Origin: an uncultured Gammaproteobacteria bacterium
GTDB taxonomy: Bacteria > Patescibacteriota > Patescibacteriia > UBA11705 > JABHMO01
Direction: 5' to 3'
DNA: 64,000 nt
Assembly: GCA_964565345.1 (NCBI GenBank)
Contig: CAZMEQ010000001.1
Coordinates: 9,838-73,837 of the forward strand
Part shown: positions 2,509 to 49,589 of the stretch, in pieces
Numbering within the stretch: position 1 is the first letter of the stretch
How the letters are laid out: every line of letters starts with the position of its first letter
Notes under the pieces: model-generated
Database searches by the model: none
What the model saw: the letters and a program-made list of their open reading frames with translations, nothing else
Told to the model about the DNA's origin: nothing
Position numbers and translations under genes: made by a program

Positions 2509-2565
2509 ATAATGTTCGGAGTTGAATTCCGATCGATCAATCCAATTCAAGAAGGAGGTGTTCTC

Positions 2566-3072: not shown

Positions 3073-3080
3073 ACAACAAA

Positions 3081-3112: not shown

Positions 3113-3127
3113 TGTTCGTACATTTTT

Positions 3128-7066: not shown

Positions 7067-7067
7067 A

Positions 7068-7622: not shown

Positions 7623-7625
7623 AGT

Positions 7626-8096: not shown

Positions 8097-8098
8097 AG

Positions 8099-8776
8099 TC
8101 AGATTTTTAATTTAAATTGAGTTTTGAGTTCATCAATTTTACCGGCTTTGATTAAGTCTACCTCTTCATTTGCATCAATTTTCGCTTCTAGACCATATGG
8201 AGTAGATCCAATATATTTTCCAGTTTGTTTTCCGTGTGCCTTAGCTTCTTCTTCGCTTAATTCACTGGCTAATTCAAATAATTGGAGCTGGCAAATTCTT
8301 TCACCCGGATAAATTTTGATGATGTGATTACTGTTGTTTACGACTGGAATGGTAAGCTGGCCACTGTAACGGCAATCAACTACGCCAGTGTTTATTTGTA
8401 ATCCGCGGCGGAGTGCTGAACTTCTGGGGAAAAGATTGCCGGCGATTCGGCCTGTATTTAAGGTTATTTTCTCTAAGGTCGAAATAATTATTGTTTCCTT
8501 GGGAAGTATTTCAAAAAATTGACCTGGTTTTAATTTTATTAACTTGAAGTATTCTTCTACGTTTTGGTAATCCAAATAGTCAGCAATTACCGCTAAGCGT
8601 CCTTTGTCGTTATATTTCCAGGTGTCAGGGATATAAAAACTCCAACCCACGCGTAAATCAATGGAATTCGGTTGCAATTGATATTCATCAAGTTCAGGCG
8701 TAAAGACTAGGGCCCCGCTGGAAATTAAATTTTGCATTTCTTTTTTCGTCAGTACCATAGGATTATTGTTAGTCAA
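8099..8776 (-). CDS. dcd: dCTP deaminase/dUTPase-superfamily protein
   Basis: QPNSIDLRVG and PRSSALRRGLQINTGVVDCRYSG motifs match Dcd/dUTPase family signatures. Confidence 0.75.
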   Translation of the reverse strand: MTNNNPMVLTKKEMQNLISSGALVFTPELDEYQLQPNSIDLRVGWSFYIPDTWKYNDKGRLAVIADYLDYQNVEEYFKLIKLKPGQFFEILPKETIIISTLEKITLNTGRIAGNLFPRSSALRRGLQINTGVVDCRYSGQLTIPVVNNSNHIIKIYPGERICQLQLFELASELSEEEAKAHGKQTGKYIGSTPYGLEAKIDANEEVDLIKAGKIDELKTQFKLKI

Positions 8777-8783
8777 ATTTAGA

Positions 8784-9296
8784 TTATTGAATGATTTTAT
8801 AGCGTAGATTTATAACGTTTTGTCCTAGGTCTCTGGTTTCTAACAGTTCAAGTTTAATATTAAGGTCTAAATCTTTAAAGAGTGTTAACCCGCCGCCAAA
8901 AAGAATCGGTTCCACTGTTATTTGTAATTCATTGACTAAGCCGGCTTGTAAGAATAGGGAATTAATAGTCGTCCCGCCACCGAGTATAACTTCTTTGTAA
9001 CCACGTTTTTCTAAGGAGCCTAGTAATTCTTGTGGTGGAAGGTTTGTGTATTCAAGTTTTTCTGGAATATTTGTTTCTAGCTCTGGCTCTTTAGTCAAGA
9101 TTATATTTAATCTGCCTGGCAGTGGTCTATTGATTGTTTTGTAGGTATTTAAACCCATTATAATAACACCGGCTTCTTTGGTACGTTGAATAAAGATTTC
9201 TTTATCCGCTGATGAGGTCCAGTCAGTTGATGTTTGATTAGAGTTTTTCGCAATAAAGCCATCTGCTGTCATTACCATCATTAAAGTAACTTTCAT
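8784..9296 (-). CDS. dihydrofolate reductase-family protein (RibD C-terminal/DHFR fold)
   Basis: MTADGFIAK ... VIIMGLNTYKTINRPLPGRLNIILT ... ILGGGTTINSLFLQAGLVNEL is the typical DHFR-family pattern. Adjacent to the ThyA homolog. Confidence 0.7.
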   Translation of the reverse strand: MKVTLMMVMTADGFIAKNSNQTSTDWTSSADKEIFIQRTKEAGVIIMGLNTYKTINRPLPGRLNIILTKEPELETNIPEKLEYTNLPPQELLGSLEKRGYKEVILGGGTTINSLFLQAGLVNELQITVEPILFGGGLTLFKDLDLNIKLELLETRDLGQNVINLRYKIIQ

Positions 9297-9300
9297 ATTT

Positions 9301-10131
9301 TTATAAAACTATTTTTAAGCCATTAATTGGACCAAGTGGTTTATATTTTGATTCTAATAGACCAGTAATTTCGTTAACTAAGGTTTCGTCGCCACGTTCG
9401 GCGCGGTCAAAATAATCAGACTGAGCTTCAAAGTGAACCGGAGGGTGATCATTGTCGCGTTCGATTAACTCCCAAGCTTGTTTGTAATGAATGTCGTATA
9501 TGTGAGCGTTGGAAATAGTATGTGTTAGTTTTCCAGGTTTAACTCCGAGTTTTCCAGCTAGTACGCAAAGCAATAAATAAAATCCCGCGACATCATGTGG
9601 GCAGCCGAGCATCATATCATTGGAACGGACAACACTATGTATATGTAATTTATTGGCGATAATATTGGCTGTCCAAGTAAAGGGGCAGGGAACGTTTTTT
9701 TTGGTTTCTGGATTACCCAAACCATCTTCGCGGGGGTCCCAAGTGATTACTACTCCATGACGTGAACCAGGGGTGCCTTGGAGATGTTGGACTAAAAGAC
9801 CCAGTTGATCCCGGCCAAAAGCATGGCGCCAACGATATCCATAAGCCGCGGGAATAGTGCCATCCTGCTCGGTAAAGTCTTGCCAAATCTTTGTGAATTT
9901 ATTTACAAAATCATCTGGATTTTTACTGCCCATGATAAACCAAATTTGTTCGGCTACAAAGAGTTTTATCGGTATTTTGCGCAAAGTTAAAAGCGGAAAG
10001 CCTTTGTCTAATTCAAAAGTTAGTCCTGGAATTATTTTGGTGTGGTGCCCGGTTCTTTCGTTGTATTCATCGAAGCCTTCATTCATTATTTTAAGAATTC
10101 CAGCTTTATAAAGTTCATCAAATTGTGTCAT
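9301..10131 (-). CDS. thyA: thymidylate synthase-family enzyme with Asp at the Asn177-equivalent specificity position; possible dCMP C5-methylase/hydroxymethylase
   Basis: Conserved blocks: FPLLTLRK, EQIWFIMG, YGYRWR, catalytic Cys in VPCPF, then R-S-N-D, PHDVAGFY and AHIY. A gapless alignment to E. coli ThyA from Cys146 to Tyr181 puts Asp at the position of Asn177, Pro at His147 and Val at Gln165. Confidence 0.85.
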   Translation of the reverse strand: MTQFDELYKAGILKIMNEGFDEYNERTGHHTKIIPGLTFELDKGFPLLTLRKIPIKLFVAEQIWFIMGSKNPDDFVNKFTKIWQDFTEQDGTIPAAYGYRWRHAFGRDQLGLLVQHLQGTPGSRHGVVITWDPREDGLGNPETKKNVPCPFTWTANIIANKLHIHSVVRSNDMMLGCPHDVAGFYLLLCVLAGKLGVKPGKLTHTISNAHIYDIHYKQAWELIERDNDHPPVHFEAQSDYFDRAERGDETLVNEITGLLESKYKPLGPINGLKIVL

Positions 10132-19259: not shown

Positions 19260-19943
19260 ATGAAAATAGGTTTTTCAACAGCAGATTTTTATCAAGAAAA
19301 AAATCAATTAGCACGTGATTTATTGGAACAGCAACTTAGCCTAGGATCAGAAGTAATTGAAGTGAATACTGGCGCGTCAGTGATTCGTGCTCAAATGCTT
19401 GGTTTATCCTCTAGCTATTTTGATGATTTTAAGTTTAAAACACTTCACGCGCCAGCAAGTATAGATGCTGCAGTTTTATCTGAATTAATCAGACTCCAAG
19501 ATAAATTTAATTTCGATTACATAAATTTTCATCCCGATCAGCTCGATATTAAGTTGTTAGAAGTTTTAGGACGTTCAGGGTTACCTGTTTGTGTCGAAAA
19601 CATGGATAGTCGTAAATTAAATTTTCGTGATGTTGAATCAATGGAAAAGTTATTGAATACATATCCTTTTGGCCTGGTTTTGGATTTGAATCATTGCTAC
19701 TCGAACGGGGAAAACATGGATTTAGTTAATGAGTTTTGGAATAGGTTGGAGAAGAGGATAAAATATTTTCATTTGAGTGGCTTTACTACTTTGCATGAAC
19801 CTTTGTATAAGACGAGACAACGAGAACTAGTTGATTTTGTTGAAAGTAAGGACAGGCCAGTGGTGATTGAAAGTATGTTAGCTGATCGTAGTGAAATGGA
19901 GCAAGAGTGGCACTACATTGTTGATAACATGCTTGATCGATAA
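19260..19943 (+). CDS. TIM-barrel sugar-phosphate isomerase/epimerase-like protein (tentative)
   Basis: ATG at 19260, right after the previous stop. MKIGFSTADF ... alternating beta/alpha pattern. Weak resemblance to the xylose-isomerase-like TIM-barrel family. Confidence 0.35.
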   Translation: MKIGFSTADFYQEKNQLARDLLEQQLSLGSEVIEVNTGASVIRAQMLGLSSSYFDDFKFKTLHAPASIDAAVLSELIRLQDKFNFDYINFHPDQLDIKLLEVLGRSGLPVCVENMDSRKLNFRDVESMEKLLNTYPFGLVLDLNHCYSNGENMDLVNEFWNRLEKRIKYFHLSGFTTLHEPLYKTRQRELVDFVESKDRPVVIESMLADRSEMEQEWHYIVDNMLDR

Positions 19944-20017
19944 TTTTTTGTTTTATTTTTGCGTGCTTAAGGGCATGCTTTTTTTATTTGTTTTTTCAAA
20001 AGAAAGTTATTTGCAAC

Positions 20018-20046
20018 TTGACATATTTGCCAAAATTAGATATTCT
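20018..20046 (+). promoter_or_regulatory. sigma70-like promoter of GC-rich island 2
   Basis: TTGACA 20018-20023, 17-bp spacer, TATTCT 20041-20046, in low-GC DNA. Confidence 0.4.
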
Positions 20047-20126
20047 GAAAAGCTCTTTTGAAGGCGGTTGCAGGATGTAGCCGTCTGTCTGGTTCAGTTC
20101 AAAATTCCATTGGGAGGTACCCGACC

Positions 20127-21077
20127 ATGAGGAAAAACATCCTCACCCTGTGCCTGATCGTCCTGTCCCTGGCGGCCTGCTCCACGAAGGAGAAGCCCGC
20201 CGACCCCGCGCCTGTCGCGGTGGCGCCCGTGCCCGAGGTCTGCACCATGGACAAGGCCAAGGCGCAGGTCCAGTACCGGGGCTTCGATGTCGCGATCGAG
20301 GGCGACACCCTGGTCTTCACCAAGGTGCTCTCCGGCGCCGACGGCCAGCGCCTCGGTCGCGAGATGCACGAGTTCAAGGTCGAGGACGACCAGGGCCAGT
20401 GCAAGCTGACCGAGTGCGTTGCCAGCCGCGAGGTCTCGGGCGAGAAGCTCGAGAATCTGTTCTGCCAGAAGCGTTCGCGCTTCTACAAGAACGGCGCGCT
20501 GGTCTGGGAGGACACCCTCCTCAAGGACAGCCAGTGGCTGCGCAGCTACGCCGGCCTAGACAAGGTCCTGATGGACGCGCCCAACTGGGCTTCGTCCGAT
20601 GGAATGGACATCTACATGACCTGGGTCTTGCGTTCGGCCGACAAGGCTGTGCGGGTGCCGGTCTGGGGCGTCCGGGCTATCTGGATCCGGGAGGGCGACG
20701 ACTACACCCTCATGGGCGGGGAAGTCGTCCTCAAGAACCCGAAGCGCGCCCCCACACCCGAGGAGGTCGTGACCTTCCTGCGCACCAACGCGCAGGGCGA
20801 GGTCAACACGCGTGGCGTCCTGTACCCGGTCTCCGGGGAGACGTTCACGGCCTATCTCTCGTACCTCAAGGACGAGGATAAGGGCTGGGAGCGAGACCAC
20901 GCCGGCGACAGCGAGGCCATGCTGGCCCACTTCGACGGGCCGGTCAAGCTCTCGCGTGGCCAGACCTGGCCGCTGGAGCGCGTCTTCCAGCACCGCGGCA
21001 CCCAGCAGTCCCGGCTGCCCAACGTGGACCCCGGCTTCCTGCCGGGCTTCCCGCTGGTCCCCAAGCTGGGCCAGTGA
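20127..21077 (+). CDS. lipoprotein of unknown function; high-GC island 2
   Basis: RBS GGGAGGT precedes ATG 20127. The N-terminus MRKNILTLCLIVLSLAACS has a canonical lipobox (L-A-A-C). G+C is far above the flanks. The ORF track's upstream extension to 20058 is not supported. Confidence 0.7.
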   Translation: MRKNILTLCLIVLSLAACSTKEKPADPAPVAVAPVPEVCTMDKAKAQVQYRGFDVAIEGDTLVFTKVLSGADGQRLGREMHEFKVEDDQGQCKLTECVASREVSGEKLENLFCQKRSRFYKNGALVWEDTLLKDSQWLRSYAGLDKVLMDAPNWASSDGMDIYMTWVLRSADKAVRVPVWGVRAIWIREGDDYTLMGGEVVLKNPKRAPTPEEVVTFLRTNAQGEVNTRGVLYPVSGETFTAYLSYLKDEDKGWERDHAGDSEAMLAHFDGPVKLSRGQTWPLERVFQHRGTQQSRLPNVDPGFLPGFPLVPKLGQ

Positions 21078-21085
21078 CAACAACG

Positions 21086-21142
21086 CGGTTGGCGTAACCA
21101 ACCACCCCCACATCGACACGTCGGTGTGGGGGTATTTTGTTG
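21086..21142 (+). terminator. tandem GC hairpins plus T-run terminating island 2
   Basis: GGTTGG cgtaa CCAACC, then CCCCCACATCGA cacg TCGGTGTGGGGG, followed by TATTTTGTTGTT. Confidence 0.6.
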
Positions 21143-21192
21143 TTACTAATCAACAAATTTTGTATAATGTTTTTAGAAATAAAATAATTTAT

Positions 21193-21966
21193 ATGACCTT
21201 GGATAAAGAGTTACAAAAAATCGGACTATCGGATAAAGAAGCGAAAGTTTACTTGGCAGCATTGGAATTAGGACAAGCTTCGGTTCAAAATATTGCCCGC
21301 AAAGCTGAAGTTAATCGCGCCACAACTTATTCTATTTTAGAGTCATTGATTAAAAAGGGCTTGTGCAGTATCAGCGAAAAAGATAAAAAAGTTTTTTATT
21401 TTGCTAGCGCGCCCGAGTCGTTACTTTCAATTTTTGATATTAAAAGGAAACATCTTGAAACAGAGGAAGAGGTTTTTAAAAGACTATTGCCAGAATTAAA
21501 TTCTGTTTTTAATAAACAAGCCGACAAGCCAACCGTACGTTTTTTTGATGGCAGACAAGGGTTGATTAATAGTTTGGGCGAATTTTATCGTGAAAAAACT
21601 GATGGCAATGAGCCAGTGCGCATGGTCTATAATAAAGATTTAATTGAAAAAACAATTGATGAAAGAGAACGACAAAAATTGAGAAAGATACGATTAACTA
21701 GAGAAATAAAATCCAAAGTTATATATAGCTACGAGGGCGGAGTTTTAAAAACAAACGTTGATGGCCAAAGAAGAAAAATTAATGGTGACGAATATCCTAT
21801 TTCATGTGATATAGAAATTTTGGGTGATGCAGTTATGTTTGTGCCTTTAACTGAAAAACTTCACGCTGTTTTAATTAAAGATAGACAAATAGCCGAAACA
21901 TTAAAGAGTTTTTTTGATCTGGCTTGGATTGGGGCCGAAATAAAAGAAGTTAAAGAGGAAAAATAA
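21193..21966 (+). CDS. TrmB-family transcriptional regulator
   Basis: N-terminal wHTH LSDKEAKVYLAALELGQASVQNIARKAEVNRATTYSILESLIKKGL is typical of TrmB-like regulators. The start was set at the first Met in low-GC sequence. The longer ORF in the track runs through the GC-rich island in the same frame by chance. Confidence 0.65.
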   Translation: MTLDKELQKIGLSDKEAKVYLAALELGQASVQNIARKAEVNRATTYSILESLIKKGLCSISEKDKKVFYFASAPESLLSIFDIKRKHLETEEEVFKRLLPELNSVFNKQADKPTVRFFDGRQGLINSLGEFYREKTDGNEPVRMVYNKDLIEKTIDERERQKLRKIRLTREIKSKVIYSYEGGVLKTNVDGQRRKINGDEYPISCDIEILGDAVMFVPLTEKLHAVLIKDRQIAETLKSFFDLAWIGAEIKEVKEEK

Positions 21967-21968: not shown

Positions 21969-22487
21969 ATGTTGGCAAAAAAAGATTTAGCAATTTATAT
22001 TTTAACTTTCTTGGTTTTAATTTTAGTCGTTTTTGTTTTATTCCAGTACTATTCGAATAATGATTCATCTCAGCCATTTGAACAAAACGAACCGGAATTA
22101 ATTTCTGTTCAGGTTTTTTATGCCAATAGTATCAAAAACCCCGAAATGCTTGATTGTTCATTAGTTTTTCCTGTTAGTCGGGTGGTAACTAGTCGCGAAA
22201 AAATATATGAGGAAACAATAAAACTATTATTGCAAGGTCCAAGTTTAGATGAAAAAACTGTTGGATACAAAAATATGATTTCGGAAAATGCGGGGCTTAA
22301 TTTTGCTAAGTTTAATAACGGGATTTTGGTAGCGGATTTTAATAGTCAGCTTGATTATGCAGTGGGAGGGTCATGTTGGACTGCGGCTATAAGATCGCAA
22401 ATTGAAAATACTATGAAACAGTGGCCGGAAGTAAAAGAAACCGTTATATCAATCAATGGCAAGAGCGAATATATATTACAGCCCTAA
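21969..22487 (+). CDS. GerMN-domain protein (membrane-anchored)
   Basis: N-terminal TM, then SVQVFYANSIKNPEMLDCSLVFPVSRVV ... KLLLQGPS, a pattern typical of GerM/GerMN domains. Confidence 0.65.
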   Translation: MLAKKDLAIYILTFLVLILVVFVLFQYYSNNDSSQPFEQNEPELISVQVFYANSIKNPEMLDCSLVFPVSRVVTSREKIYEETIKLLLQGPSLDEKTVGYKNMISENAGLNFAKFNNGILVADFNSQLDYAVGGSCWTAAIRSQIENTMKQWPEVKETVISINGKSEYILQP

Positions 22488-22488
22488 T

Positions 22489-23484
22489 ATGGATTTAAAT
22501 TCGTTGAATAATATTTTGAGTGATTATCCGTCTTTTCGTAAAAAACAGGTTTATCGTTTTATATTTAAAAATTTGATTGATAATTGGGACGAGGCTACCT
22601 CTTTGCCTGCAGATTTACGAATGGAGCTTAAAAAAAATTTCAGTTTAGATATAGAACACAAGGCTTATTTTAGTAAACACGATGATGCGGTTAAGGCGTT
22701 GGTGACTTTTGCTGATGGTGCTCAAGTAGAGACTGTTTTAATGAAGCACTCGGATGGCCGTAACACGGTGTGTGTGTCATCTCAAGTTGGTTGTGCTTTG
22801 GGTTGTGATTTTTGTGCGACGGGCAAGCTTGGGTTTAAACGTAATCTGACAAGTTCAGAAATAATTGCGCAGGTTTTGCTTTTTAATATAATTTTAAAAA
22901 AGAGTCAGGCTAAGGTAACTAACATTGTTTTTATGGGAATGGGTGAGCCAATGCGGAACTATCAAGCAGTCATGGAAAGCATAAAATTTATGAATGATAA
23001 GGATATTTTTAATCTTGGAGCGAGAAGGTTTTCTGTCTCCACTGTTGGCGTCGTTGATGGTATAAAAAAATTAGCTCAAGAACCACTAGAAATAAATTTG
23101 GCTGTTTCCATCCATGCTCCCAACGATATTTTGCGTTCTAAGTTAATGCCTATTAATAATAAATGGAATTTAAAGCAACTATTTTTAGCCATTGATAATT
23201 ACATTCATATAACAAATCGTCGTGTTATGCTGGAATATACTTTAATGGGCGGAGTTAATGATTCGTTGGATCAGGCGGCGCAGCTTTGTCAGTTGGTGAC
23301 GAATAAACTGTGTTTTGTGAATCTTATTACTTATAATAAAACTAAATTTTATACACCGCCTAAGCCCGAGGTTATTAAAAAATTTGAAAATTTTTTAATA
23401 AAAAATCATGTCGCCTGTACGACACGACAAAGGTTCGGTCATGATATTGCTGCTGCTTGTGGCCAACTTGCTGCGCGAAGTTAA
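22489..23484 (+). CDS. rlmN: 23S rRNA (adenine2503-C2)-methyltransferase, radical SAM
   Basis: VCVSSQVGCALGCDFCATG is a CxxxCxxC radical-SAM cluster motif in RlmN/Cfr context. The start was set at the Met immediately after the upstream stop. Confidence 0.8.
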   Translation: MDLNSLNNILSDYPSFRKKQVYRFIFKNLIDNWDEATSLPADLRMELKKNFSLDIEHKAYFSKHDDAVKALVTFADGAQVETVLMKHSDGRNTVCVSSQVGCALGCDFCATGKLGFKRNLTSSEIIAQVLLFNIILKKSQAKVTNIVFMGMGEPMRNYQAVMESIKFMNDKDIFNLGARRFSVSTVGVVDGIKKLAQEPLEINLAVSIHAPNDILRSKLMPINNKWNLKQLFLAIDNYIHITNRRVMLEYTLMGGVNDSLDQAAQLCQLVTNKLCFVNLITYNKTKFYTPPKPEVIKKFENFLIKNHVACTTRQRFGHDIAAACGQLAARS

Positions 23485-26440: not shown

Positions 26441-26475
26441 AAGCCTCCGTTTTAAACGGGGGTTTTATTTTTTAG
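26441..26475 (+). terminator. hairpin terminator after 26015..26356
   Basis: CCTCCGTTT taa AACGGGGGTT followed by TTATTTTTT. Confidence 0.5.
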
Positions 26476-26476
26476 C

Positions 26477-26504
26477 TTGACAAAAAGAGGAAAATCATTA
26501 TAAT
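26477..26504 (+). promoter_or_regulatory. sigma70-like promoter of GC-rich island 3
   Basis: TTGACA 26477-26482, 16-bp spacer, TATAAT 26499-26504. Confidence 0.5.
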
Positions 26505-26560
26505 AAATAACGCTTCCACGTAGAAGCAGGGTGTTTCAACTGTCCACTGAGGAGGAGCTA

Positions 26561-27052
26561 ATGACCGAGAAGAAGACGTGTCTGCAGGTGGAGAAGGAGA
26601 TCCGAGCGGGTCTGCCCGTCGGTTTCGCTGAGGCGGTGCGCTTCGACGTGCGCCAGTCCAAGAAGGGCTTGCGTGTCGTCGTGCCGAACCACCGGCTCGG
26701 CAAGATCGCGATCACCGCGACGTGCTTCAATGGCAACAGCGACCTCGTCGGTCGCACGATCTCCCACTTCACCCAGATCGTCCCCGAAGGAACCGTGGTC
26801 GAGGCCCCGCGCAACGTGGTGTGTGACCGGGTTCGCCGGGCGATTCGTGCCACGCTGCCGAAGGATTACGCGACCGCGGTGCGCTTCGATGTTCGTAGCG
26901 CTCGTGATGGCCTGGCCGTCATGATCCCGGCTCACCGCGCCAACGGCATCTACATCGATCGGCAGCGCTTCGAGCTGCCCGACCCCGATCGCCTCGTGAC
27001 CATGGCCGTCCGGCACATCTGCCAGTTCGTGCCCACGAACGCCACCGTCTAG
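26561..27052 (+). CDS. small protein built from two tandem ~70-aa repeats; high-GC island 3
   Basis: RBS GAGGAGGAG precedes ATG 26561. Repeat 1 is KEIRAGLPVGFAEAVRFDVRQSKKGLRVVVPNHRLGKIAI. Repeat 2 is RRAIRATLPKDYATAVRFDVRSARDGLAVMIPAHRANGIYI. No signal peptide. Far higher GC than the flanks. Confidence 0.6.
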   Translation: MTEKKTCLQVEKEIRAGLPVGFAEAVRFDVRQSKKGLRVVVPNHRLGKIAITATCFNGNSDLVGRTISHFTQIVPEGTVVEAPRNVVCDRVRRAIRATLPKDYATAVRFDVRSARDGLAVMIPAHRANGIYIDRQRFELPDPDRLVTMAVRHICQFVPTNATV

Positions 27053-27093
27053 ACACGGTGAGCTGATCTTTCTCTGACCAGACGCTGATTCAC

Positions 27094-27132
27094 GGCGCTC
27101 GTCCAATCACTTGGGCGAGCGCTAATTTTTTT
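27094..27132 (+). terminator. GC hairpin plus T-run terminating island 3
   Basis: GCGCTCG tccaatcacttggg CGAGCGC followed by TAATTTTTTT. Confidence 0.6.
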
Positions 27133-27206
27133 AAAAACAATAGTTGTTCACGGGAAAAGGAGAAGTTTTGTTTAATAGAAAGCCGGTTATTTGCTATAAT
27201 CAAGCT

Positions 27207-34060: not shown

Positions 34061-34327
34061 ATGATAGAAAACACCAAGGACATCTTTTATATTGTTTTAT
34101 CTTTTTGTGTTTTTTGGTTGACTGTTTTTTTGTGCTGGGGTTTGTATTACATGATACAAACGTTTAAGCAAACGAATGAGATCTTGGTAAATTTCAGGTC
34201 TCGTTTAGAAAGTATTTCTAAGCTGGTGGAATTTTTAAAAGGCAAGGCGGTTGGTTTTGTAGCTAAAAAGGCGGTTGATTTCATGTCTGACCGAAGACAA
34301 AAACCTAAAAACAAAAAAAAGGAATAA
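34061..34327 (+). CDS. small membrane protein (one TM plus Lys-rich tail)
   Basis: FYIVLSFCVFWLTVFLCWGLYYMI TM helix. The stop lies 1 nt before the start of the coupling-protein-like gene. Confidence 0.4.
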   Translation: MIENTKDIFYIVLSFCVFWLTVFLCWGLYYMIQTFKQTNEILVNFRSRLESISKLVEFLKGKAVGFVAKKAVDFMSDRRQKPKNKKKE

Positions 34328-34328
34328 T

Positions 34329-36899
34329 ATGCCAGTAGTAGAATTAGATCTCGCGGCTGGGAGTTCAATAGTTAATAACCCACTAATTATTAGCGGATTA
34401 GGAATTGCGTTCCTGGTCTTTTTATTTGTCCTGATGGTGTTTGTGTTGCGTTATTTTTCTTTGAATAAGGGACGTGTTTCGGTTGCTTTCCAAAAAAAGA
34501 TTATTATGGTGACTTTGCCCAAGGCTGCACCTAAAGACGGCGGTGGAACCGAACCGCCGGCTTGGCAGCAGGTCCAGGAAAAAATTGCGGTCATGGAAAC
34601 TTTGTTTTCGACTATCGCGGGCCTAAAGGCAGAGAAGGGGATAAAAACATGGTTTTTTGGCCATCGCGATGTTTTTTCTTTGGAAATAGTGGCGGATAGG
34701 GAGGGCAAAATTAATTTTTTTATCGCTATCCCAGCGCATTTCCAACAGTATGTCGAAGAACAGCTACAAGCCCAATTCCCGCAGGCATTTTTGGAGGAAA
34801 TTCCTGATTATAATATTTTTTCCCCAACGGCAGTTATTGCAGGTAAGATGTTAACTTTTAAGCGAGAATATATTTTTCCGATAAAAACTTTTAAAAAATT
34901 TGATTCTGATCCATTAAATGGAATTACCAATGCACTAAGTAAAATTGAAAAAGGCGATGGAGCGGCTATCCAGATAGTGATAAAATCAGCACCAGGAAGG
35001 TGGCATAATTTGGGCATTAAATTGGCCTCTAAAATGCAACAGGGCAAAAAGCTCGAAGAAGCTATGGATGAAGTTACGGGCGGTTTTTTTCATTTCATAG
35101 GGGGATTTATAAAAGCAGCTAAACCTAAGTCGGAAAGTGTCCAAGCCGAACAATATCGACTTTCTCCCATGGAAGAAGAAGTCGTCAAAGGGCTTGAAGA
35201 AAAATCAAGTAAGGCCGGAGTAGATGCCAATATTAGAATAATAGTTGCTTGCGAACGTGCGGAAAAAGCAAAAATGCATTTAGATAGTTTGATCAATGCC
35301 TTTTCCCAGTATAGCATCTATCAGTTTGGTAATGGCTTTTCACCAGCCGAGCCAGCCTTAAAGAGGGTAGTAACTGATTTTATATACCGTAATTATGATA
35401 GTAAAAGAAGTATGGTTTTTAATACAGAAGAATTAGCTAGTTTATATCATTTTCCAATTCCGTTAGTAAACGAAACCCCGACCATCCGTTGGTTAGATGC
35501 TAAAAAGGCTCCAGCGCCGCTTAATATGCCGAACGAAGGCATAATTTTGGGCAAGAATTTATATCGTGGTCGCGAAACAATGGTGCGTGTTAAACGTGAA
35601 GATCGACGTCGTCACCAATATATTATTGGTATGACTGGTACTGGTAAATCTTGGTATCAAGAAGGTCTTATCATGCAAGACATTGCTAATGGTGAGGGGT
35701 GCTGTTTTATTGACCCACATGGAGATGCTATTCAACATATTTTAGAGCATATCCCGCCTGAACGTGCTGAAGATGTTGTCATTTTAGATCCTAGTGATGT
35801 CCGCCGCCCTATTGGTTTAAATCTTTTAGAATATAAAACGCAAGAAGAAAAGACTTTTGCTATTAACGAAATCATGGCTATTTTCGATAAGTTATATGAC
35901 TTAAAGGCCACTGGTGGTCCAATGTTTGAACAATATTTTAAGAATGCCGCTGCCTTGATCATGGCCGATCCTGCCTCTGGCTCAACGATGTTGGAAATAT
36001 CGCGTGTGCTAGCGGATGATGATTTTAGAAAATATAAACTATCTGTCTGCAAAGATCAATTGGTAAAAGATTTTTGGGAAAAGGAAGCTCTAAAAGCTGG
36101 GGGAGAGGCATCTTTGCAAAATATGGTGCCTTATATTACCAGTAAGATGTCACCGTTCATATCGAACGATTTTGTTCGACCTATCATTTCTCAGCAAAAT
36201 AGCACGATTGATTTTGCTGATATTATGAATACACAGAAAATTTTGTTGGTTCAGTTGTCCAAAGGTAAAATTGGTAACATTAATGCTAATTTGTTGGGTA
36301 TGTTGATAATCGGTAAATTGCTTATGGCCGCACTAGGCCGATCAGATATGGCTGAAGATGATCGAAAGGATTTTTATCTTTATGTTGATGAATTCCAGAA
36401 CTTTTTGACAGATAGTATGGAAATTATTCTTTCTGAAGCGCGAAAGTACAGATTGTGTTTAACTATAGGTCACCAGTATATTGGGCAATTAATTAAGGGT
36501 GGGGATACAAAGTTTAAAGATGCTATTTTTGGTAACGTGGGGACTAAGGTTGCTTTTCGTATTGGTGTTGATGATGCCGAAGCATTAACAAAGGAGTTTG
36601 CTCCAATTTTTAATGAGTATGATTTTTTGAATGTCCCTAAATATAACTGTTATATTAAATTACTCGTTGATAATGCTAACCCTCCTGGTTTTAACATGGC
36701 TACAATCCCTTTTGACAAAATTCCTGGTGTTCCAGCAGCAAATAAAGAATTGTGCGATGCTATCCGTGAGTTATCCCGCTTGAAATATGGTAAAGATCCA
36801 GATATAATTGATATGGAAATAAAAGAAAGACAGCAAAAAGTTTTTAAAAAAGAAGTACCACCGCTACCTAAACCGCCTCTAGGCCCCTCTGGGATTTAA
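34329..36899 (+). CDS. VirD4/TraD/TraG-like type IV coupling-protein-family ATPase with N-terminal TM anchor
   Basis: RBS AGGAA precedes ATG 34329. Walker A IIGMTGTGKSW, then CFIDPHGD (the DPxGD motif of T4CPs), Walker B FYLYVDEFQNF, and LTIGHQ sensor-like motif. About 855 aa. Confidence 0.65.
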   Translation: MPVVELDLAAGSSIVNNPLIISGLGIAFLVFLFVLMVFVLRYFSLNKGRVSVAFQKKIIMVTLPKAAPKDGGGTEPPAWQQVQEKIAVMETLFSTIAGLKAEKGIKTWFFGHRDVFSLEIVADREGKINFFIAIPAHFQQYVEEQLQAQFPQAFLEEIPDYNIFSPTAVIAGKMLTFKREYIFPIKTFKKFDSDPLNGITNALSKIEKGDGAAIQIVIKSAPGRWHNLGIKLASKMQQGKKLEEAMDEVTGGFFHFIGGFIKAAKPKSESVQAEQYRLSPMEEEVVKGLEEKSSKAGVDANIRIIVACERAEKAKMHLDSLINAFSQYSIYQFGNGFSPAEPALKRVVTDFIYRNYDSKRSMVFNTEELASLYHFPIPLVNETPTIRWLDAKKAPAPLNMPNEGIILGKNLYRGRETMVRVKREDRRRHQYIIGMTGTGKSWYQEGLIMQDIANGEGCCFIDPHGDAIQHILEHIPPERAEDVVILDPSDVRRPIGLNLLEYKTQEEKTFAINEIMAIFDKLYDLKATGGPMFEQYFKNAAALIMADPASGSTMLEISRVLADDDFRKYKLSVCKDQLVKDFWEKEALKAGGEASLQNMVPYITSKMSPFISNDFVRPIISQQNSTIDFADIMNTQKILLVQLSKGKIGNINANLLGMLIIGKLLMAALGRSDMAEDDRKDFYLYVDEFQNFLTDSMEIILSEARKYRLCLTIGHQYIGQLIKGGDTKFKDAIFGNVGTKVAFRIGVDDAEALTKEFAPIFNEYDFLNVPKYNCYIKLLVDNANPPGFNMATIPFDKIPGVPAANKELCDAIRELSRLKYGKDPDIIDMEIKERQQKVFKKEVPPLPKPPLGPSGI

Positions 36900-36924: not shown

Positions 36925-37539
36925 ATGATGAGTTTTTTTCGTAAGAAAAAAGAAAATATTCCTACAAATAATAGTGTTCCCCCAGATGTTCCGCTCACAC
37001 AAAGGGAAATGATTCAGACGATAACACGCATGCAGCGTGAATTGGATCGTTTAAAGTCTGTTATTACAAATGGGAAAATGGAAGCTGCCGCAGAACCAAA
37101 TAAAGTGCTCGAAGAAGCTTTATTAGCTATTCAAAATAAAGAGGATGCTGTCCAAAACAGTGAAACCGAAAAAGTTGTAGAGGGTGTTTTTGATGGAGAG
37201 AGCATGGTGGGGGCTGATGGCCAACGTTATGACATTCCTGCTAACTATGCTTCCAAATCAAAGTTAGTTGAGGGGGACATCCTTAAGCTGACTATTAATA
37301 ACCTAGGATCATTTATTTATAAACAGATAAAACCTATTGATCGAGCCCGCATGGTTGGAGTTTTGGAGCAAGATGAGCGTAATTTACAATATTATGTTGT
37401 TTGTGATGATAAAAAATGGAAATTGTTAACTGCCAGTGTTACTTATTATAAAGGTGAACCAGGAGATGAAGTCGTTTTCTTAATTCCGGCTGAAGGTGGC
37501 AGTCGTTCCGCGGCGGTTGAAAATATTATTAAAAGTTAG
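36925..37539 (+). CDS. hypothetical protein
   Basis: 204-aa ORF with no recognisable motifs, downstream of the T4CP-like gene. Confidence 0.5.
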   Translation: MMSFFRKKKENIPTNNSVPPDVPLTQREMIQTITRMQRELDRLKSVITNGKMEAAAEPNKVLEEALLAIQNKEDAVQNSETEKVVEGVFDGESMVGADGQRYDIPANYASKSKLVEGDILKLTINNLGSFIYKQIKPIDRARMVGVLEQDERNLQYYVVCDDKKWKLLTASVTYYKGEPGDEVVFLIPAEGGSRSAAVENIIKS

Positions 37540-37542
37540 AGT

Positions 37543-37584
37543 AAAAAAAACGGGACCTCGCTGTGAGCGGGGTCCCTTTGTTGT
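37543..37584. terminator. bidirectional GC hairpin between convergent genes (A-run / GGGACC..GGTCCC / T-run)
   Basis: AAAAAAAA CGGGACCTCGCTGTGAGCGGGGTCCC TTTGTTG. Serves the plus gene ending 37539 and the minus MTAP gene ending 37585. Confidence 0.65.
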
Positions 37585-38460
37585 CTAGTCGAACGGAACA
37601 CCTAAGATTCGGTTGCTGTCGTTGTCCGGTCTGGCCGATGCCGCCGTGTGAACGGCAAAGCCTTGCAGTACTTTCCGGCATTCGCAAGGAGGAAGCTTGT
37701 CCATGACGCAAAGAACTTGAGCGACCATGTTGTCGGTGAAGGAACCGAAGTTGGCCAACCCAGATTTGACTTCGTCGGCCGTGACAGCTTCGCCATCGCG
37801 CCAGGCATCATAATCCGAGGGCATGGCTACCACGGCATAGCTGATACCGGCTTCGCGTGCGAGAGCAGCCTCGGGTAGGGCGGTCATGCCAATTACGGTA
37901 GCGTCTGGAACAGTGTTACGGAAGAAGTGTGATTCGGCTGCGGTGGAGAACTGTGGCCCTTCGATGACCACATAGGTCCCCTTGGTGTGGACTTGCTTGG
38001 GGGCGCAACGCCGCGCACATTCGATGAGCGTTTCGCGCCACGGGGTGCAGAAGGGTTCACCCATTGGTACGTGCACGGCTAGTCCTGTGTCGAAGAAGGT
38101 TCGTGCGCGTAGCCCCTTGGTGAAGTCGAAGAGTTGGTCGGGGATGACGATGTCTTCACCAGGTGCAATGTAGGCTTGAAGGCTACCGACTGCGCTGAAG
38201 GCTAGGATGTGTGTGACACCCAAACTCTTCAGCGCGTAGATGTTGGCTCGATAGTTGACCTGTGATGGTGCGTACTCGTGTGCTTGTCCATGTCGTGGCA
38301 ACAAGACAACTTCGTGGCCAGTACTGAGTCTGGCAACAATCGGATTGGCCGAGGTGAGGCCAAAAGGAGTCATGCGAGGGAATACTTGCGTTTGATCGGC
38401 CGGGAGTTCGAGCAGCGCAGTGCCACCCAGGATTCCCAGTTTGGGTGTTACAGAAGTCAT
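37585..38460 (-). CDS. mtnP: S-methyl-5'-thioadenosine/purine nucleoside phosphorylase (MTAP/PNP family II); high-GC island 4
   Basis: N-terminus MTSVTPKLGILGGTAL (MTAP GIIGGSGL-type motif). HGQAHEY ... NIYALKSLGVTHI ... VIGMTALPEAALAREAG blocks. RBS GAGGT precedes ATG 38460. Very high GC. Confidence 0.75.
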   Translation of the reverse strand: MTSVTPKLGILGGTALLELPADQTQVFPRMTPFGLTSANPIVARLSTGHEVVLLPRHGQAHEYAPSQVNYRANIYALKSLGVTHILAFSAVGSLQAYIAPGEDIVIPDQLFDFTKGLRARTFFDTGLAVHVPMGEPFCTPWRETLIECARRCAPKQVHTKGTYVVIEGPQFSTAAESHFFRNTVPDATVIGMTALPEAALAREAGISYAVVAMPSDYDAWRDGEAVTADEVKSGLANFGSFTDNMVAQVLCVMDKLPPCECRKVLQGFAVHTAASARPDNDSNRILGVPFD

Positions 38461-38589
38461 GCCGGACCTCATTGTTGAAGGGCAAAACAGGCTTTGAGCC
38501 AAGTATAATTTTAGCTTAAATTAGTAGAAAATGCAAAAAATTATCTGGGTTGAAAAGAGAGTCTTTTTCTGGTAAAATAATGACACACT

Positions 38590-40182
38590 ATGTCAGTCGC
38601 CTTATATCGAAAATATAGACCGAAAAATTTTTCTGATGTTACCAATCAGAACCATATTAAAATTACCTTGCAACACGAAATTGAAAATGATCATTTGGGG
38701 CATGCGTATTTATTTTGTGGACCGCGTGGTACCGGAAAGACTACTATTGCACGTTTGTTGGCCAAGGCCGTTAATTGTGTAGATTTAAAACCCAATGCTG
38801 AACCTTGTAATGTCTGTGCTAGCTGTGTCGAAATAATGGAAAATCGTTCTTTAGATATAATGGAGGTAGATGCTGCTTCGCACACTGGAGTAGACAATGT
38901 TCGAGAAAATATTATCAACAACGCTCGTTTTACTCCAACCAAGAGTAAGTATAAAGTTTTTATTATTGATGAAGTTCACATGCTTTCCATTTCGGCTTTT
39001 AATGCTTTGCTTAAGGTTTTAGAGGAGCCGCCTAAACATGTAATTTTTATTTTAGCCACTACCGAAGCACATAAAGTTCCGGCTACCATAATTTCACGCT
39101 GCCAACGTTTCGATTTTAAAAAGATATTTGCTAAGGACTTGGTGTCTCGTTTAGGGTGGATTGTTCAACAAGAAAAAATGCAAGTTGATGAGAGCGTATT
39201 AAAAAGTATTGCCAAACAAGCGGGCGGATGTGTTCGTGATGCAGAAAGTTTATTAGAACAAGTTCTATCTTTGGGTGGAGAAAAAATCACCGAGGAACAA
39301 GCGTCATTAATTCTGCCACGCTCTAACCAAAATTTATTTTTAGATCTTTTTAAAATAATACTAAACAAACAAAAAGCCGAAGGCTTGATTTTGATAAATC
39401 GTTTGGTTGATGATGGTGTTGATTTAAATCAATTTATTGATTCTTTCGTTGAATTTTTGCGTCAATTATTAATTTACCGGGTTACCAATAACCCCCATGA
39501 TTTAGCTCGAGACTTGGATGATTCTTTGGTCACAGAGTGCATTGAATTGTTAAAAAACGTAGACGAAGCTAGGCTTATTGGCATGATTAGTAAATTTTTA
39601 GAAAATAAAGATTTGTTTAAACAAAACTATTTGACGCAGTTGTCATTAGAAGTGTCGGTGATAGAGTTGTGCGATATTAATAATGTTTATCAAGCTAGAC
39701 CGAAGATAGAAGTAAAAACTGAACCAAAGGTTGAAATAGTCCCTGCGAAGACTCAGATATCTGAGGAGTCAGTCGCCCCAAAACCAGTTGTTGATGCTGG
39801 GGATTTAGACAGCTTTATGTTGCATTGGCCTAAAGTTTTAAATGATGTTAAGGCTCAGCATTATTCCTTGTTTATGTCCTTGCATATGAGTAAACCATTA
39901 AGCTTTATCGAAGATAAGTTGGTGCTTGGTTTTTTATTTGAATTACAACGTTCTAGGGTTGACGATTTGAAAGCAAAGAATATAATTAAGGAAGCTTTAT
40001 TTAAAGTTTTTGGGCGCAAGATAGAAATAGAGACATTCATAGATCAAAATTTGTCTTTGGCTGATTTGCCCAAAAACAATAACATTGAATCGGCAATAGA
40101 GGTGCCACTCGCGCCGGTTTCTCCGGAAGATTCTGCAGCCGAGGATTTGGCGGGCGCTTTTGGCGGCCAAATTGTTAGTTAA
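38590..40182 (+). CDS. dnaX: DNA polymerase III subunit gamma/tau
   Basis: YRKYRPKNFSDV ... HAYLFCGPRGTGKTT Walker A, Zn module CNVCASC, SRC motif ISRCQRF. Confidence 0.9.
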   Translation: MSVALYRKYRPKNFSDVTNQNHIKITLQHEIENDHLGHAYLFCGPRGTGKTTIARLLAKAVNCVDLKPNAEPCNVCASCVEIMENRSLDIMEVDAASHTGVDNVRENIINNARFTPTKSKYKVFIIDEVHMLSISAFNALLKVLEEPPKHVIFILATTEAHKVPATIISRCQRFDFKKIFAKDLVSRLGWIVQQEKMQVDESVLKSIAKQAGGCVRDAESLLEQVLSLGGEKITEEQASLILPRSNQNLFLDLFKIILNKQKAEGLILINRLVDDGVDLNQFIDSFVEFLRQLLIYRVTNNPHDLARDLDDSLVTECIELLKNVDEARLIGMISKFLENKDLFKQNYLTQLSLEVSVIELCDINNVYQARPKIEVKTEPKVEIVPAKTQISEESVAPKPVVDAGDLDSFMLHWPKVLNDVKAQHYSLFMSLHMSKPLSFIEDKLVLGFLFELQRSRVDDLKAKNIIKEALFKVFGRKIEIETFIDQNLSLADLPKNNNIESAIEVPLAPVSPEDSAAEDLAGAFGGQIVS

Positions 40183-40291: not shown

Positions 40292-40365
40292 TCGGGGATC
40301 GTCTAATGGTAGGACAGCAGGTTCTGGCCCTGCTAATCTTGGTTCGATTCCAGGTCCCCGAGCCA
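40292..40365 (+). tRNA. tRNA-Gln (anticodon CUG), CCA encoded
   Basis: Manual fold: acceptor TCGGGGA/TCCCCGA, D-arm GTC-TAATGGTAG-GAC, anticodon stem GCAGG/CCTGC with loop TTCTGGC (CTG), T-arm CTTGG-TTCGATT-CCAGG, discriminator G, then CCA. Confidence 0.75.
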
Positions 40366-47850: not shown

Positions 47851-48309
47851 ATGAACAAAAAAAACGTTATTTTATGTGCAGTCGGAGGAGCTATTATTTT
47901 AGCACTGGGCTTCGCTGGTGGATTGGGGGTATCAAAATTAAGTAAAAATAATCGTAATTTTGGTCAAGGTCAACTTTTTGATGGGAGTAAAATGGGGATG
48001 ATGGGAAACCTAAAAAATAGTGGGCGTGGTTTAGGTTCTGGTTTTAACAATGGTGAAGTTTTATCCATTGATGATAAAAGTATAATAATTAAATTGCCGA
48101 GTGGTGGTTCAAAAAGCATACTTTACTCTGACTCAACCAAAGTCTATAAATCTGTGGAAGGGGCTTTAACAGATATAAATACAGGGGATAGAATTATGGT
48201 GATTGGAAAAAATAATACAGATGGGAGTGTCAGTGCGGAAAGTATTCAAATACAACAAGTTCAGCCTGTGGAAATAGCACCAACAGAAAAGGAAGAAATA
48301 AAAAAATAA
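47851..48309 (+). CDS. secreted Gly-rich small beta-rich protein (DUF5666-like), paralog of 43502..43972
   Basis: N-terminal TM/signal. GEVLSIDDKSIIIKLPSGGSKSILYSDSTKVYKS ... GDRIMVIGKNNTDGSVSAESIQI. Confidence 0.4.
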   Translation: MNKKNVILCAVGGAIILALGFAGGLGVSKLSKNNRNFGQGQLFDGSKMGMMGNLKNSGRGLGSGFNNGEVLSIDDKSIIIKLPSGGSKSILYSDSTKVYKSVEGALTDINTGDRIMVIGKNNTDGSVSAESIQIQQVQPVEIAPTEKEEIKK

Positions 48310-48319
48310 GTAGAAATAT

Positions 48320-48360
48320 AAAAAATCTCCCCCACACCTATGCGTAGATGTGGGGGAGTT
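48320..48360. terminator. bidirectional GC hairpin (A-run / CTCCCCCACA..TGTGGGGGAG / T-run on minus)
   Basis: AAAAAAT CTCCCCCACA cctatgcgtaga TGTGGGGGAG, between convergent genes ending 48309 (+) and 48364 (-). Confidence 0.65.
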
Positions 48361-48363
48361 GCG

Positions 48364-49038
48364 TCAGTTCTTGCGCCCTCCCTTGCCCATGATCTTGAGC
48401 AGCTGGAGGAAGAGGTTGGCGATGTCGAGGTAGATCGCGACGGCGCTGTCCACCGCGTTGTCCAGGGTTCGCGGCAGCTGTACCGCGCGGTTCCAGTCGT
48501 AGATGATGTACAGGGTGAACAGCAATGCAGCCGCGTAGTCGATGAAGGGCCAGTCGTAGAGGTTGTTGCTCACTCCGAAACTGGCCGCGATGAGCTGTCC
48601 GAAGCGAACGAAGACGAGCACGGTGAGCGCACCGAACAGGTAGCCGCCCCAGCTCAGGAGGAGCGTGGGGAAGGCGACTCCGATGATGCTCATGACCACG
48701 GTCACAGCTGCGGTGGCCACGAGTGCGTTCACGACCACGGCGCTCTGGTACAGGTTGACCGTGGGGCCCATGATGGCACCCAGGCCGCAGACCACCATCA
48801 GGTAGCCCACCAGGCTCACCAGCCAGTTGTCGCTGCCCATCGCGATGAAGATGCCGATGATCGGGATGACCAGGCCCACCCCCAGCGCGGCCCAGATGTT
48901 GGGCTGCCAGGGCATGGTGAGGAAGGCGATACCGGCGGAGATAATGAGCCCCACCATCGTGAAGCCCGAGACCGCGAAGATGTACTCGCGGAGGCTGAGC
49001 TCCGAACCGATGCCTCGTTGTTCCGAACGTTCCCAAAC
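48364..49038 (-). CDS. Bax-inhibitor-1/YccA (TMBIM) family integral membrane protein; high-GC island 5
   Basis: Seven predicted TM helices and a C-terminal ...NLFLQLLKIMGKGGRKN typical of the BI-1/YccA family. The start was chosen at MVWERSEQRG; the upstream in-frame extension is possible. Very high GC. Confidence 0.65.
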   Translation of the reverse strand, partial: VWERSEQRGIGSELSLREYIFAVSGFTMVGLIISAGIAFLTMPWQPNIWAALGVGLVIPIIGIFIAMGSDNWLVSLVGYLMVVCGLGAIMGPTVNLYQSAVVVNALVATAAVTVVMSIIGVAFPTLLLSWGGYLFGALTVLVFVRFGQLIAASFGVSNNLYDWPFIDYAAALLFTLYIIYDWNRAVQLPRTLDNAVDSAVAIYLDIANLFLQLLKIMGKGGRKN

Positions 49039-49331
49039 CATGCTGGAAAGACCTATCTGACCCTCCACTTTTATAGGGAATTCATCTGTCCGAAATGGAC
49101 TTAATATTGTAATATAAAGACTAGTATTTGTCAAGGTAGGAGTTTTTATGTTTTCACCTAAAATTACACCTTATATTGACATTTTAGTCGTAATGCGCTA
49201 TACTTAAGATGTTTGTTAGGTGCTCAAAGAGTTTCCAAGGCCAAAGATCTTTAGTCTTTCGTGCGGAAGAAAGTTATTTGAGGTAAAGTGTCGACCTGCA
49301 ACATTTTATTAAAAAGACTAAGTACAGTACT

Positions 49332-49589
49332 ATGGCAAAGAAACTTTTTGTTGGCAGCATTGCCTTCAAAACAACTGACGAAGGTTTACGAGCTTTTTTC
49401 GAAACAGTCGGTACAGTTGAAACAGCTACTATCATCAAAGATAGAATGACTGGTCGTTCAAAAGGCTTTGGTTTCGTTGAAATGTCAAATGACGACGAAG
49501 CTATGAAAGCTATTGAACAGCTTAATGGTAAGGAATTAGATGGCCGCGCTATCGTTGTAAACGAAGCTCGCCCTCGTGAAGATAAATAA
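49332..49589 (+). CDS. RRM-type RNA-binding protein
   Basis: RNP2 LFVGSI and RNP1 KGFGFVEM. 85 aa. Confidence 0.8.
   Translation: MAKKLFVGSIAFKTTDEGLRAFFETVGTVETATIIKDRMTGRSKGFGFVEMSNDDEAMKAIEQLNGKELDGRAIVVNEARPREDK

Follow-up and report, generated by a model that had tools for sequence, protein, structure and literature searches.

The closest described relatives of the gene treated here are the S-methyl-5'-thioadenosine phosphorylases (MTAP, MtnP), with solved structures from human (1CB0), Aeropyrum pernix (1WTA), Sulfolobus tokodaii (1V4N) and a metagenomic source (4GLF). Methylthioinosine phosphorylase (MTIP; Pseudomonas PA3004 type, NF006599) and the 6-oxopurine purine nucleoside phosphorylases (PNP; PunA/XapA, TIGR01697-1700) have the PNP_UDP_1 superfamily and the trimeric NP-I fold in common with them. 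The gene is encoded on the minus strand of a 64,000-nucleotide stretch (the window) of contig CAZMEQ010000001.1 (assembly GCA_964565345.1, positions 9,838 to 73,837), derived from an uncultured bacterium, and forms a GC-rich block within it. In this respect it resembles the classical ameliorating island of the model of Lawrence and Ochman 1997 (as it is cited, ref. 27, in PMC12455944), which is likewise a discrete block of atypical GC content with third codon positions (GC3) nearer to the host than first and second positions (GC1, GC2). It differs from such islands in being a single gene without mobility genes or repeats, syntenic across lineages whose synonymous sites are near saturation, and in having its nearest relatives within the recipient's own phylum. 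The gene probably belongs to a functional MTAP lineage specific to Patescibacteria, which has long been in this slot, is dispensable, and was not recently imported from a high-GC host. A literature search returned nothing on MTAP or on persistently GC-rich genes in the candidate phyla radiation (CPR).

The minus-strand open reading frame (ORF) 37585..38502 is intact over 305 amino acids and contains both motifs quoted in the original prediction, LGILGGTAL and VIGMTALPEAALAREAG. The protein database holds the product in this 305-residue form (P0001). The true start is probably ATG 38460, giving 291 residues, because a GAGG is located 6 nt upstream and the orthologs begin at this position after GGAGG. 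Pfam PNP_UDP_1 (PF01048) matches residues 37-252 of the 305-residue ORF (E=2.3e-31), the top NCBIfam models are all MTAP models with TIGR01694 first (257.8 bits, cutoff 274.85), and the solved MTAPs 4GLF, 1WTA, 1CB0 and 1V4N match at E=1e-53 to 1e-56 with 38-41% identity and similar length. The protein scores 171 bits against the MTIP model (cutoff 223) and 22-65 bits against the PNP models, far under the MTAP models. In a fold search of the PDB with the AlphaFold2 model (pLDDT 82.9, pTM 0.86), the 50 best matches were all MTAPs (TM 0.72-0.88, E ~1e-24 to 1e-27), so that Pfam, NCBIfam, solved structures and predicted fold agree with the family assignment originally proposed.

Residues T14, R56, H57, H61, F171, M192, T193, D216 and D218 align with the solved MTAPs; their human counterparts we take to be T18, R60, H61, H65, F177, M196, T197, D220 and D222. 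The roles checked were those of the phosphate-binding Thr, Arg-His and Thr, the His and Met of the 5'-alkylthio pocket, and the purine-selecting Phe and Asp-x-Asp. The GGT phosphate loop, the RH pair, the equivalents of H65 and F177, the MT pair and the D-x-D are thus alike, and the active-site residues are invariant across the alignment with relatives, save T14 and M192, which are nearly invariant. The presence of Asp-x-Asp in the purine site favours 6-aminopurine substrates. The clade of the window protein differs from MTAPs elsewhere in having P[AS]DYD[AS]W rather than [A/G/V]TDYDCW, GGT[AS] rather than GGSG, and a C-terminal GFxVHT motif. The gene product is predicted from these features to be an S-methyl-5'-thioadenosine phosphorylase of the trimeric PNP/MTAP fold, and its substrates, trimer state and expression are likewise predictions. 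Judged by homology, it would phosphorolyse 5'-methylthioadenosine (MTA) to adenine and 5-methylthioribose-1-phosphate. 5'-Deoxyadenosine from radical S-adenosylmethionine (SAM) enzymes is probably a second substrate; a radical-SAM gene at 22456-23484 is a possible source, and SAM-dependent methyltransferases are also present. The adenine would become available for salvage, and the reaction would also clear inhibitory by-products of SAM chemistry. The window ORFs scanned included no spermidine synthase, MtnA or APRT, and no second PNP/MTAP-like ORF occurs elsewhere in the window. A compact deoxynucleotide salvage and synthesis cluster was observed at 4747-10131 on the minus strand, comprising a thymidylate kinase-thymidine kinase fusion (4747-6087), an AAA_17 kinase, dCMP deaminase, a dCTP deaminase/dUTPase-like gene, DHFR and ThyA. 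The enzyme itself is an ordinary new member of a known family, and its persistent composition is the sole puzzling part.

The window has a GC content of 0.388, within which positions 37522-38530 stand out as a discrete, sharp-edged block of at least 0.5 GC that peaks at 0.62. The MTAP coding sequence reaches 0.566 (GC1/2/3 of 0.62/0.47/0.61); native window ORFs have a GC3 of 0.23-0.46. When GC1, GC2 and GC3 were calibrated against flank GC on 127 loci, the composition of the gene implied a source genome of 0.58, 0.62 and 0.51 GC, respectively. The amino-acid usage (GARP 0.32, FYMINK 0.20) resembles that of MTAPs from genomes of ~55% GC, such as the Chloroflexus enzyme (GARP 0.34, FYMINK 0.20); the native window proteome has GARP 0.21 and FYMINK 0.31. 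At 143 other MTAP loci the gene exceeds its flanks in GC by a mean of +0.025 (standard deviation 0.030, maximum +0.146), and the +0.18 of the window gene lies 5-6 standard deviations above this mean. The claim of GC-rich DNA can thus be extended to an exceptional anomaly. The background was taken from profile scans of genome and metagenome contigs with the clade alignment; among the matches listed in these scans no clade member was found, all being outsiders at 38-50% identity. MTAPs of genomes with 25-30% GC among these loci have a GC3 of 0.16-0.25, and therefore the enzyme itself needs no GC-rich coding. The sole non-Patescibacteria locus with a large excess among the matches listed is a contig labelled Dehalococcoidales (L034, CAZQRE010000126.1; +0.146, flank GC 0.389); it is short (3027 bp) and could be another transfer or a binning problem. 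High expression or codon adaptation was ruled out as a cause of the GC-richness, as ribosomal protein genes and EF-Ts have a GC3 of only 0.27-0.37.

The host is a Patescibacterium near Falkowbacteria/Kuenenbacteria. Its DnaX homologs at 45-66% identity carry the names Candidatus Falkowbacteria, Kuenenbacteria, Parcubacteria group and Patescibacteria group, and the window is therefore assigned to a CPR/Patescibacteria genome. In a search of 5.8 billion proteins the nearest MTAP relatives form a small group (P0002-P0009, 63-53% identity), after which identity drops to 47% or less. All closest homologs that could be placed (63-38% identity) are located on low-GC Patescibacteria contigs, in the same slot as in the window. 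The shared gene order is S2, EF-Ts, PSP1, PheS, PheT, an ORF of 84-97 amino acids, T4CP (DUF8128), an ORF of ~205 amino acids, MTAP on the opposite strand, and DnaX. Close relatives with this order are L001 and L002 (Logan), L003 (JGI), L004 (ENA) and L005 (JGI). L001 is identical to L002, and L003 to L004, over 16-20 kb, which leaves no single-nucleotide polymorphism spectrum for analysis. Distant genomes with MTAP in the same slot are L086, L087, L089 and L090, with 43%, 42%, 38% and 42% identity to the window protein; the DnaX of L090 (P0136) is named Falkowbacteria. Nine of the 10 related loci read, or 7 of 8 distinct sequences, carry MTAP there, and these carriers come from several samples and assemblers. 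With L088 as the sole exception, the orthologous site does not show the empty state in relatives expected for a recent gain. Both neighbour genes are 70-88% identical to L005 at the nucleotide level up to the MTAP borders, with no donor-type mosaic. The MTAP lineage would have occupied the slot between T4CP, the ~205-residue ORF and DnaX since before the Falkowbacteria-like genomes diverged.

The lineage is also marked by its own sequence motifs. P[AS]D[YD]D[AS]W occurs in 19 of 20 Patescibacteria-type MTAPs and G[FM]x[VI]H[ST] in 14 of 20; neither was found in any of 129 others. In a neighbour-joining tree the GC-rich subclade (window, L001/L002, L003/L004, L005) is monophyletic with 81% bootstrap, and the sister group is made up of other Patescibacteria-type sequences alone in at least 83 of 100 replicates. 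A phylogeny of this kind had been proposed as a check for a donor, and it groups the window MTAP with its own phylum. In a profile search of 1.84 billion representative proteins the motif was present in only 5 of the best 150 matches, the single one of GC-rich type being P0009. No carrier of this allele type from a GC-rich genome occurs among these 150, and no relative was found in a viral collection. The best outsiders among the matches listed (44-48% identical) come from Chloroflexota, Myxococcota, Planctomycetota, Latescibacterota and others, and no single non-CPR donor stands out among them. There is thus no support for a high-GC partner, and a GC-rich source, if there was one, would have to lie within the Patescibacteria.

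The anomaly is shared by the close relatives. In the window, L001, L003 and L005 the gene exceeds its flanks by +0.18 to +0.22 GC, with an MTAP GC3 of 0.59-0.68 and a GC3 of 0.27-0.35 in flanking genes. In the distant L086, L087, L089, L090 and L091 the excess is +0.07 to +0.10, and the MTAP GC3 of L090 is 0.35. Closest homologs in low-GC CPR genomes of similar composition had been named as evidence against import. The nearest homologs are indeed in low-GC Patescibacteria, which speaks largely against it; the homolog genes are themselves GC-rich, and therefore some old compositional event or GC-maintaining force is real. As to age, the window shares 67-79% identity in flanking proteins with L001, L003 and L005, and L001 shares 76% with L003. 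Fourfold sites match at 0.33-0.38 in the flanks (0.29-0.30 expected by chance) and at 0.29-0.35 in MTAP (0.27-0.30 by chance), and are thus near saturation between these four lineages. The GC-rich state, being shared across them, therefore predates their splits. According to a rough decay estimate, passive amelioration should have erased most of the excess, and an ancestral GC3 of at least ~0.8-1.0 would be needed, which argues against a simple relic. The subclade would thus carry an allele with the composition of a genome of 51-62% GC, kept through near-complete synonymous turnover.

Two further observations concern the composition of these relatives. Of 17 genes common to L001 and L003, two are GC-rich, and they are the same ones in each genome (GC3 0.59-0.71), namely MTAP and a secreted protein of 209/222 amino acids; the remaining 15 have a GC3 of 0.21-0.36. 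The gene of the secreted protein (L001 1148-1777 and L003 1457-2125, both on the minus strand; 60% identical; GC 0.53-0.56, GC3 ~0.70) has no Pfam match and adjoins a low-GC Na+/H+ exchanger gene. MTAP is therefore not the only gene with persistent GC-richness. In L086 (locus GC 0.42, median GC3 0.43), conserved fourfold sites of the flanking genes (DnaX, T4CP, PheT and a 216-residue ORF) have a GC of ~0.65, an unusual bias specific to codon families.

The sole locus without the gene, L088, groups with the window and L005, its flanks being 78-82% identical. Its 207-residue ORF and dnaX are 120 bp apart, and at the empty site a terminator and the MTAP -10 box complement persist. In window coordinates the absent stretch is ~37585-38507, the GC-rich part. 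As the absence is nested among carriers, loss is implied, and the gene is therefore dispensable. The description of this function as lifestyle-critical was overstated, since a close relative is cleanly without it.

Several points weigh against a functional, old and resident MTAP lineage. The protein falls slightly short of every NCBIfam MTAP equivalog cutoff (TIGR01694, NF0063xx); such a cutoff is an annotation threshold and not a biochemical feature, and the assignment of the same function is therefore drawn from residues and fold. The phylogeny is by neighbour joining only, and the Patescibacteria clade is on a long branch. The contigs of P0003, P0005, P0007, P0008, P0010, P0012 and P0039 are outside the placed set, and a GC-rich carrier among them is possible. 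The relation of GC1 and GC2 to GC3 looks like classical partial amelioration, fitting a younger arrival than the synteny implies. The grouping of the window with L005 against L001 with L003 is supported by 1000/1000 bootstraps for DnaX, 1000/1000 for T4CP and 947/1000 for the 204-residue ORF, but by only 89/1000 for MTAP, where an alternative grouping receives 765/1000. The distance between the window and L005 is 0.70 for MTAP versus 0.21 for the flanks. Strong lineage-specific acceleration and allele replacement at the slot both fit this incongruence.

The gene is nevertheless an old Patescibacteria-specific allele, the GC-richness of which is maintained, re-imported, or unusually slow to decay. 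Which of these applies has to be inferred from the comparisons. Once the resident lineage is granted, a GC-favouring force acting in place is the foremost candidate, followed by an old ameliorating allele and then by repeated replacement; taken outright, each of them is tentative.

Maintenance in place would require a force confined to the transcription unit. It could be selection acting on the transcript, such as for mRNA stability, or GC-biased gene conversion if the slot is prone to recombination. Such maintenance is the leading possibility, but one held with low confidence. Four lineages show an equal GC excess although their fourfold sites are near saturation, and L001 and L003 have a second GC-rich gene in common as orthologs. 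The limits of high GC match those of the transcribed region, 5' untranslated region (5'UTR) to terminator, with the promoter staying AT-rich, and the flanks are without mosaic right up to the gene borders. The lack of a GC-rich-genome carrier among the best 150 of 1.84 billion representatives is also in line with a local force. In bacteria, GC-biased gene conversion is on record and raises the GC3 of genes that recombine, whatever the mutation bias (Lassalle et al. 2015, PMC4450053). Such conversion could hold a gene above genomic GC; the present case differs in that the neighbour genes are unaffected and that the evidence for recombination is tree incongruence only. The effects in that study are reportedly smaller than the ~30-point GC3 excess of the window MTAP, and we know of no gene-specific GC force of this kind in CPR. 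The raised GC1 and GC2 and the GARP-rich protein point instead to a long stay under genome-wide GC pressure, GC3 lags behind GC1 and GC2 as in amelioration, and the distant syntenic relatives are almost at host composition, as in L090. Singleton counts (S>W versus W>S) for MTAP fall within the range of a stationary simulation, although this simulation fits the flanks poorly. By extension, low-GC Patescibacteria of this group might carry a small set of single-gene units held at 55-63% GC past synonymous saturation by a gene-confined GC-favouring process. This proposal is about as tentative as the force itself; its members would be MTAP and the 209/222-residue gene of L001 and L003, and other islands of the window may belong to it. 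If it is true, dating CPR islands or tracing their donors by composition would systematically mislead, and bacteria would have a strong local driver of GC open to direct testing.

The excess could also be a passive relic, in which the resident gene was replaced at the base of the subclade by a single GC-rich allele, originating in a GC-richer Patescibacterium, that has ameliorated slowly and in parallel in all descendants since. This is less probable than maintenance. It accounts for the partial amelioration seen across the three codon positions and for the monophyly of the subclade. L090 looks like a fully ameliorated older state of the same process, with GC3 at host level and GC1 and GC2 still ~2 standard deviations high, and the relic is compatible with the rough decay estimate if ancestral GC3 was ~0.8-0.9. 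However, residual fourfold similarity of the flanks after chance correction is only 4-12%, and at 67-79% protein identity synonymous turnover should have erased most of the excess unless the ancestral GC3 was at least ~0.8-1.0. The same slow pace of decay is required in all four lineages, and the star-like, incongruent MTAP tree is left unexplained.

Recurrent replacement of the cassette, whereby divergent GC-rich alleles are repeatedly imported from an unsampled pool of GC-richer Patescibacteria and each copy is young in its genome, is doubtful to a greater degree again. It would explain why the MTAP quartet conflicts with both neighbours and why the closest genome pair, the window and L005, has the most divergent MTAPs. 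The slot is polymorphic for presence and absence, the segment missing from L088 being the GC-rich one, and the amelioration pattern hints at short residence. For another island of the window, the Bax1-I gene, the nearest fetched homologs are of near-native composition in Patescibacteria of 44-49% GC. Yet neither a GC-rich carrier among the best 150 representatives nor a viral relative was found, the borders are identical and gene-tight in all lineages, and the flanks are without donor-type DNA. Homologous recombination with a GC-rich donor would require similar flanks, and recombinase genes and repeats were not found. The MTAP identity of 64% between L001 and L003 is ordinary among their 17 shared genes (49-89%).

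Recent horizontal acquisition from a high-GC partner or host outside the CPR (Actinobacteria, for example), with amelioration still to come, is very unlikely. This was in essence the acquisition that the original prediction proposed, and it gains something from the sharp-edged GC block of exactly one gene, from an amino-acid composition like that of MTAPs from ~55% GC genomes, and from four further GC-rich single-gene blocks in the window. It is contradicted by the closest placeable homologs, which occupy the same locus in low-GC Patescibacteria, by the lineage motifs in 0 of 129 outsiders, and by best non-CPR matches listed that are only 44-48% identical and scattered over phyla, with no donor resolved. 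The gene is moreover common to lineages with near-saturated synonymous sites, and integrase genes, flanking direct repeats and an adjacent tRNA were not found. An assembly artefact (chimera or contaminating read pile-up), as might be suspected from a metagenome-derived contig with abrupt composition changes at the borders, is scarcely credible, since the same junctions and gene order recur in independent Logan, JGI and ENA assemblies from different samples and the intact ORF has host-style promoter, Shine-Dalgarno and terminator signals.

MTAP is the lone minus-strand gene within a plus-strand run spanning at least 27144-48309, convergent with the T4CP-like gene and the 204-residue ORF and divergent from dnaX (Table 1). 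The convergence with a native T4CP-like locus across a shared bidirectional GGGACC/GGTCCC hairpin was correctly described beforehand. This hairpin has 11 pairs, 8 of them G-C, and has folding energies of -22.9 (z -5.0) and -18.0 kcal/mol (z -3.9) on the two strands; hairpins at the equivalent position in relatives have a different sequence. The 204-residue ORF has no Pfam match. The -10 region of the MTAP promoter, AAG[C/A]TAA[A/G]AT, is kept in L001, L003 and L005. The gene would thus be a self-contained monocistronic unit, with its own AT-rich promoter, a Shine-Dalgarno site and the shared bidirectional terminator. Around the block no flanking direct repeats, integrase or recombinase genes, or adjacent tRNA were found; its neighbours are housekeeping genes, and the sole tRNA (Gln, 40292-40365) is located beyond dnaX and was the only result of an Rfam scan. 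Strong hairpins as an island-specific 3' module were ruled out, as RNAfold gives similar hairpins after several native genes.

Table 1. Features of the MTAP locus and of the other GC-rich islands in the window
Feature	Position	Strand	Remarks
MTAP-family nucleoside phosphorylase, coding sequence	37585..38460	-	291 amino acids; stop TAG 37585-37587; ORF, family and fold evidence
In-frame upstream extension to TTG 38502	38461..38502	-	more likely 5'UTR; GAGG Shine-Dalgarno site 38467-38470
T4CP-like ATPase	34275..36899	+	TrwB_AAD_bind, TraG-D_C, DUF87 (DUF8128 in relatives); native composition; orthologs 76-87% identical
Conserved hypothetical protein, 204 amino acids	36925..37539	+	last gene of the convergent operon; orthologs 68-75% identical, adjoin MTAP in every relative
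dnaX (DNA polymerase III gamma/tau) with promoter-like site 38550-38578	38550..40182	+	divergent from MTAP
Bidirectional intrinsic terminator	37543..37584	both	A8 tract, hairpin 37552-37576, T-rich tail TTTGTTGT; common to MTAP and the T4CP/204-residue operon
Promoter-like site for MTAP, TTTGCA-18-TAAAAT	38508..38537	-	AT-rich spacer; 9/12 match, not significant alone
Cys-rich secreted protein or lipoprotein	2566-3072	+	GC3 ~0.73
Lipoprotein, 316 amino acids	20127-21077	+	GC3 ~0.90
Protein with internal duplication, 163 amino acids	26561-27052	+	GC3 ~0.84
Bax1-I/US12 membrane protein	48364-49041	-	GC3 ~0.81

The window contains four further GC-rich single-gene blocks (2496-3218, 20006-21206, 26466-27192 and 48261-49126); numbered along the window with MTAP as island 4, these are islands 1, 2, 3 and 5, and their GC3 values in Table 1 come from ORFs that are slightly longer. 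All four have a near-consensus promoter, a Shine-Dalgarno site and a GC-rich terminator hairpin of their own. The hairpins of islands 2 (21105-21132) and 5 (48329-48356) are near-identical (CCCCCACATC...GGTGTGGGGG, 24 of 28 positions), with a compensatory change in one stem pair; no such match is expected by chance, and 0 of 174 fetched loci have the motif. A 13-mer common to islands 1 and 4 is not significant, as the window has 293 repeated 13-mers. Head-on orientation was ruled out as a cause of the GC-richness, islands 1-3 being co-directional with positive GC skew. The Bax1-I unit of 48310-49150 is missing in full, with its terminator, ORF, 5'UTR and promoter, from L088 (19634-19700). Its nearest named or fetched homologs (64-50% identity) are from Patescibacteria; the two fetched, in genomes of 44-49% GC, have an excess of only +0.06 GC. 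Next to this unit, the leader at c. 49170-49331, upstream of an RRM_1 gene (49332-49589), is ~88% identical to L088 c. 19680-19847, far above other intergenic DNA. This leader of a small RNA-binding-protein gene may be a regulatory 5'UTR; it matched no Rfam family.

For a reduced cell the gene would provide a route to recycle adenine and to clear MTA and 5'-deoxyadenosine, and its absence from a close relative indicates an accessory rather than an essential function. The locus is also a caution, in that a sharply bounded high-GC island of a CPR genome had been taken for a fresh transfer from host to symbiont, and comparison shows instead an old, phylum-internal gene at a fixed locus. The gene keeps the composition and amino-acid usage of a genome of 51-62% GC inside genomes of ~37% GC. 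If this persistence is actively maintained, it would bear on the control of GC content in bacteria and on the use of amelioration clocks.

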